A stretch of DNA of 64,000 nucleotides. Origin: Escherichia coli. GTDB lineage: Bacteria > Pseudomonadota > Gammaproteobacteria > Enterobacterales > Enterobacteriaceae. Below the pieces are notes generated by a model. That model saw only the letters and a program-made list of their open reading frames with translations. It was not told the DNA's origin and did no database searches. Within the stretch, counting starts at the first letter, position 1, and the number at the start of each line of letters is the position of its first letter. Both the position numbers and the translations under genes were made by a program. The DNA lies in assembly GCF_009931435.1 (NCBI RefSeq), contig NZ_CP043414.1; one strand, written 5' to 3'. This document shows positions 1 to 47,576 of this stretch, one piece after another.

Positions 1-1551
1 CTGTGTGCGATAAGAAAGCGCGGCTGATAACGCTTGTTCCGCCAGATTTCCTCCACCAACGCTACCTGATATTGCATCCCCTGCGGTACCACCACGGTTC
101 AGACCATCGACCTGAATAATCTTAATACCGTCGATAGACTTCATTGGTTCCACAGATTTCTCAATTACCGCAGGGAGCGCCTGCAACAATGCCAGTTTGA
201 ATTTAAGGCTGGTTTGCTCGTCAGAAAGTACGTTGATAGCATCGTTCAGCGCACGTTGCGCTTCTGCTTCCGCCAGGCCTTTTTTACGCGTAGCTTCGGC
301 TAACTCAACGATCGCCGCCGCCTGCATCTCTGCGGCTTCTTTTTCTGCTTTCGCCCGCACGGTCAGTTCAACCGCTTTGGTTTCTGCATCCTGCGCGGCA
401 GCGATTAGGGCAACTTGTTTAGCACGATCGGCTTCTGCGGTCTGGCGAGTGGTTTCTACGTTTTGCTGGGCGCTTACCGCTTCTGCAAGTGCAAGGTTGG
501 CACGCGCTTCCGCTTGTGACTGCTGTTCCGATTTGGCGGCAATAGCGATCGATTTCGTCTGGTTGGCGATTTCGGTGACCTGCTGCTGTTCGATCTCTTT
601 AATGCGAACTTCACGTTCAGCTTCAACTTTTCTGGAACGGACGGCCTGTTCGCGGTCGATTTCCGTTTCCTGAATCTGTCGTTCAGCCAGAATTCGCGTC
701 TGCTCTGCTTCCCGACGACGCTCGGCCTCAAAAGCCGCAATTTTCGCATTCTGCTCAGCGGTACGGGTTTTAACCTGCTGCTCCTGCTCAAGCGTCATAA
801 ACGCTTCTTGCTGTTCAATCTCCAGCTTCCGCGATAGCGCATCACGGTTTTTCTCACGCACCGCAACTTCTACATCTTGTTCAACTTCGTTACGTTCGCG
901 GCGACGGCGCTCCGTCTCCTGCGTCAGCTTGGTTAAACCTTCGGCGTCAAAGGCGTTGTTAGGATTGAAATGTTCTTTCGACGTCTGGTTAAAGTTGGTA
1001 AGTGAAACGCTTTCCAGTTCCAGGCCGTTTTTCGACAGATCTTCAGCAACGGTATTTTGTACGCCCTGCACGAAGTTCTCGCGGGTATCCTGTAACTCAT
1101 GCATGGTCATTTGTGCAGCTGTTGCACGGAGGGCATCGACAAATTTATCTTCAACCAACATACGTAAGTCTTCAGGCGACAGGGTGCGTTGCCCCAGCGT
1201 CTGGGCGGCGGTGGCAATACCTTCCACTGACGGTTTTACCCGCACAAAGAAAGCGACAACGACATCGACGCGCATACGATCTTTCGTAATCAGGCTATCA
1301 ATGGTTGAGCGGCTGACTTCCAGCTTCAGAGTATTCATATTGATGGGGATTATTTCATGAAAGATCGGCATCACGATTGCGCCACCGCTCATTACCACTT
1401 TTTGCCCACCTAAACCAGTACGAACAAAAGCTTGCTCTGCCGAAGCGCGACGATAGAGCCTGGCGAAAATAATTCCAATAATAAACAGAATGCATACGGC
1501 AATAATTGCGGTAAACATCCAGGAGGGCACAGAATTAACAATATCATCCAT
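1..1551 (-). CDS. yqiK: Flotillin/band-7 (SPFH) family inner membrane protein YqiK, partial (C-terminus beyond window start)
   Basis: Minus-strand reading frame starts at ATG 1551 (MDDIVNSVPSW...) with SD aaagga upstream and runs off the window; TM anchor then coiled-coil-rich SPFH-like sequence; follows yqiJ. Confidence 0.8.
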   Translation of the reverse strand, partial: MDDIVNSVPSWMFTAIIAVCILFIIGIIFARLYRRASAEQAFVRTGLGGQKVVMSGGAIVMPIFHEIIPINMNTLKLEVSRSTIDSLITKDRMRVDVVVAFFVRVKPSVEGIATAAQTLGQRTLSPEDLRMLVEDKFVDALRATAAQMTMHELQDTRENFVQGVQNTVAEDLSKNGLELESVSLTNFNQTSKEHFNPNNAFDAEGLTKLTQETERRRRERNEVEQDVEVAVREKNRDALSRKLEIEQQEAFMTLEQEQQVKTRTAEQNAKIAAFEAERRREAEQTRILAERQIQETEIDREQAVRSRKVEAEREVRIKEIEQQQVTEIANQTKSIAIAAKSEQQSQAEARANLALAEAVSAQQNVETTRQTAEADRAKQVALIAAAQDAETKAVELTVRAKAEKEAAEMQAAAIVELAEATRKKGLAEAEAQRALNDAINVLSDEQTSLKFKLALLQALPAVIEKSVEPMKSIDGIKIIQVDGLNRGGTAGDAISGSVGGGNLAEQALSAALSYRTQ

Positions 1552-1577
1552 TATTAAATTTCCTTTTGATTAATAAA

Positions 1578-2207
1578 TTACAATATCTGGGGCCAGGGAT
1601 TGTTTTCCGCCAAATATCGCGTTGCAGAAAGTCGGCAAATAATTAACACTTTGTCTCCTTTAGTGAAAATTTTTCCTTCTTCAGGCTCTAGTAGTAAATA
1701 ATGTATTTGGCCAAATTGATCGGTGAGTTTTCCTTCGCAGGGATTACCTGAAGTGGCCTGATGACCGGTAATGAACGCCATGCTACCAATATATTCTTCT
1801 TCTGTAATAGCTGAACTATGGTCGCGTGGAATCCAGGGCGCAACTATTTTACCGGTATAATGCACCGCAATAATCGTAAACAGTAAACTGACAGGAGCCA
1901 CGAACAGGTTCGAGAGTGGTGATTGCCAAACCATGATGCAGGCATGCTGCAACAGGATGCCAATAAGACCAAAAAAACCAGCCAGTAAACAGAGAACGAC
2001 GAGAGCTGGCAATCTTCCGATATTGAGATAATGAAGTGCCTGGCTAATATGACCTGTGGTTATGGAATCATAATGGTCAAGATGTGCATCAAGAGCACCG
2101 GAGAGCATGTGACCGCAGATAAGCGCAAAAATTTCTAAAAGGCCGATCAACAGTACAAAGGAAATAGCGAAAAGATAAGGGGTGTTATAGTCGGCGAATA
2201 AAATCAT
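1578..2207 (-). CDS. yqiJ: NfeD-like inner membrane protein YqiJ
   Basis: ORF track 209 aa, multi-pass membrane protein; length and position upstream of yqiK match K-12 yqiJ. Confidence 0.8.
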
Positions 2208-2475
2208 ATGTCACTCCAATGTCCATTTAGTGACGCAATATTTACTTTAGGATAGTTTCCTTGCTTACATTTATCTTTGTTAATAATAACACATGTTAGA
2301 GAGGTTCTGGAAGAGAAAGTCTTTTAATATGGTTTTTTATTTTTCACTAAAAAGTGTGATCGGGGACAATATATTTACGCACGTTATGTTTAAAGGCACT
2401 ACACTGATTGGGGAATACTGAAATCAGAAAAAGCATATGGCCTTAAAAGGTATGCGATAACCGGAGGATGTGCTT

Positions 2476-2676
2476 ATGGATCATAGTCTTAATTCTTTAA
2501 ATAATTTCGATTTCCTGGCGCGTAGTTTTGCCAGAATGCACGCAGAAGGTCGCCCGGTCGATATTCTAGCCGTTACTGGTAACATGGATGAAGAACATAG
2601 AACCTGGTTTTGCGCACGTTATGCCTGGTATTGCCAACAGATGATGCAAACCAGAGAACTGGAATTAGAACATTGA
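2476..2676 (+). CDS. glgS: GlgS (surface composition/glycogen regulator), 66 aa
   Basis: Translation [66 protein letters not shown] recognised as GlgS; ATG at 2476. Confidence 0.9.
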
Positions 2677-2680
2677 TATT

Positions 2681-2702
2681 ACGGGCCGTCTGGCCCGTTT
2701 TT
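2681..2702. terminator. Bidirectional stem-loop between convergent glgS and ubiK
   Basis: Inverted repeat acgggccgtctggcccgt followed by T-run. Confidence 0.6.
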
Positions 2703-2710
2703 GTGGTGCT

Positions 2711-3010
2711 TTATTCTGCTTTATCAACCGGCGGGATAGCCGGAGGAGATTGAAGTTCTGCTACCGGATTATTGCGCGCTTCCAGTTCGCTGATGCGTTG
2801 TTCCAGTAACGCCAGTTTTTCACGAGTCCGTAACAGGACTTGCGTCTGAACGTCGAATTCTTCGCGGCTTACCAGATCGAGACGCGTCAACTGCGCTTGT
2901 AGGGTTTGGCGGATTTTTTTCTCCACATCTTCCCCGAACTCCCTGATTCCTTTAGGCATTGATTCGTGAACCTGGCGAGCGATTTGCTCAATTTTTTTCG
3001 GGTCAATCAT
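2711..3010 (-). CDS. ubiK: Ubiquinone biosynthesis accessory factor UbiK (YqiC)
   Basis: ORF track frame; likely start [15 protein letters not shown]...; coiled-coil BMFP-type protein; divergent from ribB as in K-12. Confidence 0.8.
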
Positions 3011-3129
3011 TGTAGTTTCCCTGTACTGATAGGTGTTGAGTGCCATTGTAGTGCGATAAGGGTAAGTCATAAACCAGAATAATGTGAAGCTATGCGTTGC
3101 TGCCGCTAATCATTAGCGTTATAGTGAAT

Positions 3130-3290
3130 CCGCTTATTCTCAGGGCGGGGCGAAATTCCCCACCGGCGGTAAATCAACTCAGTTGAAAGCCCGCGAGCGC
3201 TTTGGGTGCGAACTCAAAGGACAGCAGATCCGGTGTAATTCCGGGGCCGACGGTTAGAGTCCGGATGGGAGAGAGTAACGATTCTGTCGG
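3130..3290 (+). promoter_or_regulatory. FMN riboswitch (RFN element / SroG) in ribB leader
   Basis: Conserved RFN motifs agggcggggcgaaattccccaccggcggtaaat ... cagcagatccggtgtaattccggggccgacggttagagtccggatgggagag directly upstream of ribB. Confidence 0.8.
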
Positions 3291-3383
3291 GCATGGACCC
3301 GCTCACGTTATTTTGGCTATATGCCGCCACTCCTAAGACTGCCCTGATTCTGGTAACCATAATTTTAGTGAGGTTTTTTTACC

Positions 3384-4037
3384 ATGAATCAGACGCTACT
3401 TTCCTCTTTTGGTACGCCTTTCGAACGTGTTGAAAATGCACTGGCTGCGCTGCGTGAAGGACGCGGTGTAATGGTGCTTGATGATGAAGACCGTGAAAAC
3501 GAAGGCGATATGATCTTCCCGGCAGAAACCATGACCGTTGAGCAGATGGCGCTGACCATTCGCCACGGTAGCGGTATTGTTTGCCTGTGCATCACTGAAG
3601 ATCGCCGTAAACAACTCGATCTGCCAATGATGGTAGAAAATAACACCAGCGCCTATGGCACCGGTTTTACCGTGACCATTGAAGCGGCTGAAGGGGTGAC
3701 TACCGGTGTTTCTGCCGCTGACCGTATTACGACCGTTCGTGCTGCGATTGCCGATGGCGCTAAACCTTCTGATCTGAATCGTCCTGGCCACGTTTTCCCA
3801 CTGCGCGCGCAGGCGGGTGGTGTGCTGACGCGTGGCGGCCATACCGAAGCGACTATTGATCTGATGACGCTGGCAGGCTTTAAACCAGCTGGTGTGTTGT
3901 GTGAGCTGACTAATGACGATGGCACGATGGCGCGTGCGCCAGAGTGCATTGAGTTTGCCAAGAAACACAATATGGCGCTCGTGACTATTGAAGACCTGGT
4001 GGCATACCGTCAGGCACATGAGCGTAAAGCTAGCTGA
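3384..4037 (+). CDS. ribB: 3,4-dihydroxy-2-butanone 4-phosphate synthase
   Basis: ORF track 217 aa; sequence recognised as RibB. Confidence 0.95.
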
Positions 4038-40998: not shown

Positions 40999-42186
40999 TT
41001 ACACAATTCGCGTAAAACCGGCGTCCAGATCGGCAATCAAATCATCGACATCTTCCAGACCAATATGCAGGCGAATCAAGGTCCCGCTAAAATCGATCTC
41101 GCCTTGTGGGCGAATGGCGGCGATATGTTCCGGTTGATTTGCCAGGATCAACGATTCATACCCGCCCCACGAATAGGCCATGCTGAATAAACTGAAGTTA
41201 TCCAGATAGTTCGCCAGCTCTTCATCATTGAGTTTTTTCTTAAGCACAAAGGAAAATAGCCCGCTGCTGCCTGTAAAGTCTCGTTTCCAGAATTCGTAGC
41301 CTTTACTGCCAGGCAGAGCAGGGTGGTTAACTCGCGCTACTTGCGGATGCTCTGCCAGCCATTCAGCCACTTTCAGACTGCTTTCATGATGTTGACGCAG
41401 GCGAACACCCAAAGTGCGTAGGCCACGGCTGGTTATATAGGCGGTATCGGCATCGACCATCTGCCCCATCAGATAGGCATTCTCCCGCAGCTGCTCCCAG
41501 CAACGGGCATTGCATACGGCAGTACCAATCATCGCATCTGAATGCCCCACCAGATATTTGGTGGCTGCCTGAATGGAAACATCGATGCCAAAATCCAGCG
41601 CCTTAAACAGCACACCGGCCGCCCAGGTGTTATCGATCATAATGATGGCATCTGGCACCACACTGCGCACGGCGGCAACAATCGCCGGAACGTCGTGGAC
41701 TTCCATGGTGATGGAGCCTGGCGATTCCAGAAACACGATTTTAGTGTTTGGCTGCACATGTTTAACGATATCTGCGCCAATCAGCGGATCAAACCACGAT
41801 GTCGTTACGCCCAGTTTGCTGAGGATTTTGCTACAGAAATCCTGACTCGGTTCATAGGCGGTGTTGGTCATCAACACATGATCGCCCTGTTCGACAAAAG
41901 CAAGAATGGAATTAGCAACCGCTGCTGCTCCGCAGGGGAACAGCACGCAGCCTGCGCCACCTTCCAGTTCGCACATCGCTTCTTGTAAGGAGAAATGGGT
42001 TAACGTTCCACGCCGTCCATAAAACAACTCGCCATTGGCGCGATTGCGTGTCGCGTGTTTTTTGGCTTCCACACTGTCAAAGACCAGCGAAGACGCGCGC
42101 TGAATCACGCTATTTACCGCGCCGAGAGTGTATTTTTTGCTGCGTCCTGCGTTCACCAGTTGAGTATCAAGCTTTTTGTCCGCCAT
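40999..42186 (-). CDS. metC: Cystathionine beta-lyase MetC, 395 aa
   Basis: ORF track frame; start at [18 protein letters not shown]-dependent enzyme. Confidence 0.9.
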
Positions 42187-43604: not shown

Positions 43605-43611
43605 AGAGAAT

Positions 43612-43712
43612 TGCCTGATGCGCTACGCTTATCAGGCCTACAAAATCTATCGCAAGGTATTGAATTTGCATGAATTTGTAGGCCGGATAAGGCGTTCACG
43701 CCGCATCCGGCA
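43612..43712. repeat. REP/BIME palindromic units downstream of exbD
   Basis: gcctgatgcgctacgcttatcaggcctac and tgtaggccggataaggcgttcacgccgcatccggca, typical REP sequences. Confidence 0.75.
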
Positions 43713-43729
43713 AGAGTTATAAAGTACGA

Positions 43730-43766
43730 TGATGCCCGGTTGCTTTTCACAACCGGGCATTTTTTT
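43730..43766. terminator. Hairpin plus T-run between convergent exbD and yghA
   Basis: gcccggttgcttttcacaaccgggc followed by attttttt. Confidence 0.65.
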
Positions 43767-44649
43767 AGCCTAAATGCTCGCCGCCGCACACGCCGTGCAC
43801 TTCTGCGGTGACATAGCTCGACTCCTGACTTGCCAGATAAACATACACTGGGGCCAGCTCCGCCGGTTGTCCTGCACGTTTCATTGGTGTTTGCTGTCCA
43901 AACTGCGGGATCTTATCCTGCGTCTGTCCACCGGAAATTTGCAGTGCCGTCCAGATAGGGCCTGGTGCGACAATGTTCACTCGAATGCCTTTTTCTGCAA
44001 CCTGTTTTGCCAGGCCACGGCTGTAGTTCAGAATCGCCGCCTTCGTAGCCGCATAGTCCAGCAAATGTGGGCTTGGCTGGTACGCCTGGATTGACGAAGT
44101 GGTGATGATACTGGCACCTTTCGGTAGCAGGGGGATCGCTTCCTGGGTTAGCCAGAACAGCGCGAAAACGTTAATGGCAAAGGTCTTTTGAAACTGTTCG
44201 CTGGTGAGGTCTGCAATATCAGGAATGGCAACCTGTTTCCCGGCGACCAGCGCCATAATATCCAGCCCGCCTAACGCCTTGTGCGCTTCGTGAACCAGCG
44301 AACGGGCGAATTTCTCATCGCTTAAATCGCCTGGCAGCAGGACGGCTTTGCGTCCGCATTCTTCAATGATCTTTTTCACATCCTGAGCGTCTTCTTCTTC
44401 CACGGGAAGATAACTGATCGCTACGTCAGCGCCTTCACGCGCGTAAGCGATGGCGGCAGCACGACCGATTCCGGAATCGCCCCCTGTCACCAGTGCTTTA
44501 CGATCTTTCAGGCGACCGCTACCAACATAGGTTTTCTCGCCGCAATCCGGCACCGGTGTCATTTTCGCCTGGATGCCTGGCGTCGGTTGTTTCTGTTTGG
44601 GATATTCACCAGTGTAATACTGCGTGGTCGGGTCTTTTAAATGAGATAT
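43765..44649 (-). CDS. yghA: Short-chain dehydrogenase/reductase YghA (conserved N-terminal extension lacks ATG)
   Basis: ORF track 43765..44562 (265 aa, TGGDSGIG Rossmann motif); in-frame upstream 29 codons encode [29 protein letters not shown], with ATA where an ATG start is expected (44647..44649). Confidence 0.8.
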
Positions 44650-44770
44650 TGTTTTTCTCCCTTCAGGTTCAACGTCCTTTAAGGGTAGACGCTCTCGATG
44701 CGTTGATAAGGGAACCAGGAAGATCCCTAAACCTCGGATTTATGCGACAAAGGTTTAACGGATATGTTGA

Positions 44771-46567: not shown

Positions 46568-47458
46568 ATGATGCCGCGTCTGACCGCTAAAGATTTCCCA
46601 CAAGAGTTGCTGGATTACTACGACTATTACGCTCACGGGAAAATTTCGAAACGTGAGTTCCTCAACCTTGCGGCGAAGTATGCGGTGGGCGGGATGACGG
46701 CATTAGCGTTGTTTGATTTGCTCAAGCCAAATTATGCGCTGGCGACTCAGGTAGAGTTTACCGACCCGGAAATTGTTGCTGAGTACATCACGTATTCTTC
46801 GCCAAATGGTCACGGCGAGGTACGGGGTTATCTGGTGAAGCCCGCAAAGATGAGCGGCAAAACGCCAGCCGTGGTGGTGGTGCATGAGAATCGTGGACTG
46901 AATCCGTATATCGAAGATGTGGCACGGCGAGTAGCGAAGGCGGGGTATATCGCCCTGGCACCTGACGGCTTAAGTTCCGTTGGAGGTTATCCGGGTAATG
47001 ATGATAAAGGTCGTGAGCTGCAACAGCAGGTTGATCCAACCAAACTGATGAATGATTTCTTTGCCGCAATTGAGTTTATGCAACGCTATCCGCAAGCGAC
47101 AGGCAAAGTGGGTATTACCGGATTTTGCTATGGCGGTGGTGTATCGAACGCGGCGGCTGTCGCGTATCCGGAAATGGCCTGCGCGGTGCCGTTTTATGGT
47201 CGTCAGGCACCCACTGCCGATGTGGCGAAGATTGAAGCGCCTTTACTGCTCCACTACGCGGAACTGGATACCCGAATCAACGAGGGCTGGCCCGCTTACG
47301 AGGCGGCGTTGAAAGCCAATAATAAGGTCTATGAGGCGTATATCTATCCGGGGGTTAATCACGGATTCCATAATGATTCCACGCCCCGTTATGACAAATC
47401 TGCCGCCGATCTTGCCTGGCAAAGGACGCTGAAATGGTTCGATAAATATCTCTCCTGA
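46568..47458 (+). CDS. yghX: Dienelactone hydrolase-family protein YghX (intact)
   Basis: ORF track frame; start at ATG 46568 (MMPRLTAKDF) with SD gagga; uninterrupted 296 aa. Confidence 0.7.
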   Translation: MMPRLTAKDFPQELLDYYDYYAHGKISKREFLNLAAKYAVGGMTALALFDLLKPNYALATQVEFTDPEIVAEYITYSSPNGHGEVRGYLVKPAKMSGKTPAVVVVHENRGLNPYIEDVARRVAKAGYIALAPDGLSSVGGYPGNDDKGRELQQQVDPTKLMNDFFAAIEFMQRYPQATGKVGITGFCYGGGVSNAAAVAYPEMACAVPFYGRQAPTADVAKIEAPLLLHYAELDTRINEGWPAYEAALKANNKVYEAYIYPGVNHGFHNDSTPRYDKSAADLAWQRTLKWFDKYLS

Positions 47459-47576
47459 TAGGTTTATCTCTTACGGGATTACGTCTTAAACAAGCATGAA
47501 AAAATAGCGTGCGCAAAAGTCGTTCTTTGCCTAAAATATCGCTATATATGACAATATATAGCGAATGAGGTGAACG

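Follow-up and report, generated by a model that had tools for sequence, protein, structure and literature searches.

A very recent ATG-to-ATA change at the start codon of yghA in an Escherichia coli clone

In the 64,000-nt stretch of E. coli DNA analyzed here (the window), the yghA gene carries ATA at the position where its relatives have the ATG start codon. The change from ATG to ATA is one G-to-A transition at the third base of the codon. We consider it probable, at about 75%, that this ATA is a real and very recent mutation of the clone and that it results in a hypomorphic-to-null yghA allele that is tolerated. Three features of a start loss were found: the relatives have a canonical start at this position, ATA is the derived state, and no replacement start is present upstream. 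No further damage was observed in the remaining 293 codons.

The yghA gene is located on the minus strand. The ATA occupies positions 44649..44647, and the substituted base is at 44647 (A on the coding strand and T on the plus strand). Read 5' to 3' on the minus strand, the sequence across the start is GAAGGGAGAAAAACA-ATA-TCT-CAT-TTA-AAA-GAC. A Shine-Dalgarno (SD) sequence, AAGGGAG, the same as in the relatives, is present at 44663..44657 with a spacing of 7 nt to the ATA, and its duplex with the 3' end of the 16S rRNA was computed as -8.4 kcal/mol. Codons 2 to 294 and the stop codon (43765..44646, with the stop at 43765-43767) are intact, and the encoded protein is identical to K-12 YghA. Upstream, the frame is bounded by an in-frame TAA at 44742..44740; downstream, it is open from the ATA through Met30 as far as the stop at 43767..43765. 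The ATG of Met30 (44562..44560) is the first canonical in-frame start and opens the 265-aa ORF listed by the program, and the 59 codons between this TAA and Met30 include no ATG, GTG, or TTG. Two other upstream in-frame codons, CTG at 44718 and ATC at 44724, both with SD-like matches of -6.6 kcal/mol, were also considered as starts and were rejected, as they are no better initiation codons than ATA and are unchanged from the relatives. A consensus promoter scan of the spacer between yqhA and yghA gave no match on the yghA strand.

When Met was restored at position 1, the translated sequence exactly matched the database entry YGHA_ECOLI, residues 2 to 294 being identical. In the annotation of K-12 MG1655, yghA (b3003) is 885 nt long and begins at the homologous ATG. 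Pfam analysis detected adh_short_C2 (PF13561, E = 3.9e-57) at residues 58-291 and adh_short (PF00106, E = 4.2e-44) at residues 51-239, and the closest solved structure was that of Salmonella YghA (3R3S, E = 3e-184). On sequence grounds, the product is thus classed as a classical short-chain dehydrogenase/reductase (SDR) and as the orthologue of YghA. The K-12 gene (UniProt P0AG84), which encodes an NAD(P)H-dependent short-chain aldehyde reductase, is found in the same context of gpr-yqhA, yghA, and exbD-exbB-metC. Its SD sequence and 5' region are the same as those of the window except for two polymorphisms, whereas codon 1 is ATG in K-12 and ATA in the window. These results agree with a sequence-only reading of the window, which had placed the expected start at 44647..44649 on the basis of a length of 294 aa for K-12 YghA; the position is homologous to the annotated K-12 ATG, and the length is that of the exact YGHA_ECOLI match with Met1 restored. 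The same reading had described ATA at this position with no ATG, GTG, or TTG upstream, with which the explicit codon check was in agreement, and an SD-like motif ahead of the ATA, which corresponds to the AAGGGAG with its 7-nt spacing and -8.4 kcal/mol duplex.

We examined the upstream ATG as the ancestral start in other species. A pattern back-translated from residues 6-17 was used as a query and matched 19 loci in species of Enterobacteriaceae. In all 19 loci, an ATG preceded by GGAG or GGGAG was found, either at the homologous site or, in a second sequence type, four codons further upstream. When the codons from 6 to 30 were compared with those of K-12, 7-15 synonymous and 2-3 non-synonymous codon differences were counted per comparison; the search pattern constrained codons 6-17 and left codons 18-30 free. 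In an alignment of 10 Enterobacteriaceae proteins, the region from D6 to E38 was almost entirely invariant. The N-terminal segment also aligned to Salmonella 3R3S over its full length, to the Burkholderia SDR 5JYD from residue 4, and to the Bacillus SDR 3I3O from residue 20. YghA and these PDB homologues have the motif QPG-x4-M-x-P-x-P in common, and Met30 occupies a conserved internal position in it. Together, the alignments indicate that the annotated ATG is the true ancestral start of yghA. If Met30 were instead the real start in all strains, the substitution would be a harmless change in the 5' untranslated region. Apart from the existence of Met30 itself, no support for this was found, and the mostly synonymous differences between genera in codons 6-30, the conservation of an ATG with an SD sequence at the upstream position, and the alignment of the N-terminal segment in distant homologues with solved structures make it barely credible.

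We next examined how widely the ATA is distributed. Over the 501 bp centered on the codon, the window differs from 11 complete E. coli genomes at this base and nowhere else, and the two of these genomes that were aligned have ATG at codon 1 and an annotated 294-aa product (WP_000018760.1). Because it is a single-base difference in an otherwise identical 501-bp stretch of 11 genomes, the ATA is not a chance pattern. None of 5,420 complete RefSeq E. coli genomes contained an exact match to the ATA-bearing 61-mer on the background of the window. A version of this 61-mer with the most common E. coli background (AACGATA) was likewise absent from 5,390 genomes, so that the two counts cover two of three backgrounds, the third being the rarer AAAAGCG. 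The exact ATA pattern was not detected in a set of one genome per species from 100,044 species, nor were the ATA patterns detected in two scans of JGI metagenome contigs, the second of which was degenerate for all three backgrounds; the copy number of the ATG form is uncontrolled in both of these collections. The exact Gpr and ExbB variants of the window are widespread, being found in 4,982 and 1,378 index blocks, respectively. The loci reached through them were relatives at ~97-98% identity, all with a full-length 294-aa yghA, and the ATG was read directly in 12 of them. ATG was thus present at codon 1 in K-12 MG1655 and in every close relative inspected. The sequence-only reading had proposed a comparison in which reference strains might also carry ATA, and no reference strain does.

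Exact matches to the 265-aa product were found in 270 index blocks, corresponding to 200 contigs in public assemblies, and the loci from 24 of the 270 blocks were read. One of the retrieved loci, in GCA_037230235.1 (contig JAXUWE010000002.1), carries the same ATA. This assembly was identical to the window at 20,797 of 20,798 bases. The only difference is at 47556, where GCA_037230235.1 has a private C and the window and 11 other loci have T. Through the MetC variant of the window, a sister genome, GCA_009899265.1, was also found, which has ATG at codon 1 and a 294-aa gene call, with 3 mismatches to the window in 9,177 bases. Across the 5.4 kb shared by the three sequences, they vary only at the start-codon base. 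The remaining two differences between the sister and the window are at sites where the allele of the sister is private and that of the window is common. Since a sister three SNPs away has ATG and the window holds the common allele at the other variable sites, the ATA is derived. It is also very recent, having arisen after the split from a sister that differs at ~3 in 10,000 bases. The ATA is shared by descent in two mutually distinguishable genomes. It is confined to one clone, and the allele may occur in more than the two assemblies, as 24 of 270 blocks were read.

These comparisons also bear on the accuracy of the base itself. A base-call or assembly error, with ATG as the true codon, could account for one deviating base in a sequence otherwise identical to its relatives, and the two ATA assemblies are so nearly identical that data or method might be common to both. 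However, the same A is present in the second assembly, which has a private SNP of its own, and the surrounding sequence, CAATATCTC, forms no homopolymer or repeat and is not error-prone. In addition, alignment of the two over 20.8 kb showed no indel and no surplus of differences. An error is therefore very unlikely. The sequence-only reading had left three options, namely a base-call error, a non-canonical start at ATA, and truncation to a 265-aa protein beginning at Met30. The first is unlikely in view of the shared A, and the other two stand only as possible trace products, neither of which resembles functional expression at a normal level. The reading considered most likely here, a recent reduction or loss of function restricted to the clone, was not among the three.

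We then considered the consequence of a real ATG-to-ATA mutation for expression. The mutation leaves the SD sequence, the spacer, the 5' region, and the other 293 codons as they were, so that 30S subunits and ribosomes would still be expected to bind and to meet AUA in the P site. IF3 discriminates against near-cognate start codons such as AUA. Initiator tRNA would be expected to read the near-cognate AUA poorly, and IF3 to reject it. In the reporter genes of Hecht et al. (bioRxiv 10.1101/063800), AUA, together with AUC, AUU, and CUG, supported 1-2% of the expression from AUG when the reporter was high-copy and 0.02-3% when it was low-copy or single-copy. In those reporters, AUA stood behind a functional ribosome-binding site, as in yghA, but the constructs were synthetic and were carried on plasmids or a BAC, not in the native yghA context. 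Production of full-length YghA is predicted to be no more than about one percent of the normal level, a size of drop that we infer by extrapolation from these reporter genes. A little 265-aa protein lacking the conserved N-terminal segment may be made from Met30. Traces of both full-length YghA from AUA and truncated YghA from Met30 are possible. The undamaged state of the remainder of the gene would fit a very young lesion and would fit equally well with continued selection on a useful product. The ATA allele may be a first step towards a pseudogene.

The ATA might instead be an adequate start, possibly tuned by IF3, that provides a sufficient and deliberately low level of full-length YghA. 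The retention of a strong and correctly spaced SD sequence, the place of AUA among the four best near-cognate start codons, and the undamaged rest of yghA are in line with this. Programmed near-cognate starts exist in E. coli in the form of the AUU codons of infC and pcnB, which are conserved across strains and species and are part of a regulatory loop. The ATA of yghA is similar to these in being a near-cognate A-U-N codon behind a good SD sequence, but it lacks their conservation: it is absent from the other E. coli examined, and all 19 loci of other species have ATG. Not even the sister three SNPs away has it. Moreover, the measured efficiency of AUA is at most 3% of that of AUG, and an undamaged gene would be expected anyway for so young a mutation. 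On balance, an adequate ATA start is quite unlikely. An adaptive change in this clone, in which an AUA start giving very low, IF3-sensitive YghA is retained or production is switched to a Met30 isoform, is highly improbable. The ATA of yghA is an ordinary strain-level start-loss polymorphism, not a new mechanism of translation.

The main product could also be an active 265-aa YghA made from Met30 in useful amounts, in which case the mutation would have changed the isoform and not silenced the gene. Met30 is the first canonical in-frame start and is the one selected by gene callers, an AGG is located 5 nt upstream of it, and with upstream translation gone, even an AUG with a weak SD sequence could outcompete AUA. 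The Rossmann and catalytic domains begin after residue 30 (adh_short at 51-239 and adh_short_C2 at 58-291), so that a Met30 product would retain the Pfam SDR domains (residues 51-291). However, the SD duplex at Met30 is only -3.4 kcal/mol compared with -8.4 kcal/mol for the ancestral start. The 71 nt around Met30, in which the AGG is base-paired, fold at -16.1 kcal/mol, compared with -8.2 kcal/mol at the native site, and Met30 would thus be a weak but conceivable initiation site. A product beginning at Met30 would also lose D6-K29, a segment that is invariant in Enterobacteriaceae, is conserved as far as Burkholderia, and is preserved in the PDB homologues 5JYD and 3I3O. Met30 itself is part of the PG-x4-M-x-P-x-P motif, and its conservation is consequently no proof of a role as a start. 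In a preprint that modeled the YghA tetramer on 3R3S, Pro24 was placed among the flexible residues of the binding cavity (bioRxiv 10.1101/2025.06.05.657471); this modeled placement hints that the N-terminal segment may not be dispensable. An AlphaFold2 model that we computed for full-length YghA from 10 aligned sequences was poor (mean pLDDT of 58, with residues 1-38 below 50) and was uninformative on residues 1-29. Taken together, useful production of an active Met30 isoform is unlikely, and a strong reduction of YghA remains the preferred consequence of the ATA.

Tolerance of such a reduction was examined from the occurrence of other yghA lesions. The aldehyde reductase YghA is non-essential and overlaps in substrates with YqhD and DkgA, and yqhD and dkgA are found a few kb from yghA in the same window. 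Among the loci with the 265-aa product (L003-L012 and L055-L064), at least six other independent lesions were found in the first 29 codons of yghA in other lineages, all leading to the same 265-aa gene call. They comprise four different 1-bp insertions, a change of Gln27 from CAG to TAG, and an insertion combined with a T-to-C change in a low-quality contig. One of the lesion-bearing strains is E. coli O28ac:NM 02-3404, which is of the enteroinvasive type. Because at least six other N-terminal lesions have occurred in other lineages, we consider that yghA tolerates disruption, and we infer that the ATA allele carries no fitness cost. These other alleles have the same intact 265-aa ORF from Met30 but preclude any full-length protein, whereas the ATA allele, unlike the insertion and nonsense alleles, could still yield traces of full-length YghA. 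By our own estimate, ~4,500 start codons present a target of ~13.5 kb per genome. At a divergence of ~3 in 10,000, about four start-codon changes would be expected per genome if they were unconstrained, and fewer under selection. The loss of one start codon, in yghA, is not surprising. In several of the lesion-bearing contigs, many neighboring genes were also split, which points to either Shigella/EIEC-like decay or low-quality assemblies.

For annotation, the result means that gene callers report a 265-aa "SDR oxidoreductase" for the ATA allele and for the unrelated frameshift and nonsense alleles, which hides the lost start. The ATA strain is a natural ATG-to-ATA mutant in the native chromosomal setting and is usable for the study of near-cognate initiation in vivo. 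The same ATG-to-ATA test is also easily engineered, and the finding matters little beyond annotation and opens no long-standing question.

Several observations were made in the sequence around yghA. No close relative of the lineage was found among 5,426 complete RefSeq E. coli genomes, the highest identity to positions 32001-57000 of the window being 98.5% over 25 kb, yet the 501 bp at the start of yghA matched 11 of these genomes except for the ATA. This points to a mosaic, recombined region. The MetC protein encoded by metC (40999-42186, minus strand) is identical to that of five genomes of 4.4-4.7 Mb outside the RefSeq E. coli collection (L021-L025). In DNA, metC of these five genomes was 98.1-98.9% identical to that of the window, while the flanks were 80-91% identical on the exbD-dkgA side and ~96-98% identical on the gpr-yghA side. 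The metC gene of a typical E. coli genome (L046) differed from that of the window by 36 nt and 7 aa. The pattern suggests a tract of recombination at metC, in one direction or the other, between species or with a cryptic clade.

In the spacer between exbD and yghA, a REP-like insert of ~123 bp (gccggatgcggcg...ccggcctac) is located at 43606-43728 of the window and is polymorphic for presence or absence. The exbD-yghA gap is 158-160 bp in the window, in both the second ATA assembly and the ATG sister (L059 and L026), and in one further locus (L001), compared with 38 bp in many other strains, and a third group of strains has a differently arranged insert between the two genes. On the other side of yghA, a gene of the dienelactone hydrolase family on the plus strand (46571-47458) is an intact 295-aa ORF in the window and in many strains, and in K-12 it is annotated as the pseudogene yghX and the small CDS yqhI. 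Position 47556, the SNP between the window and GCA_037230235.1, is just beyond the high-coordinate end of this ORF.
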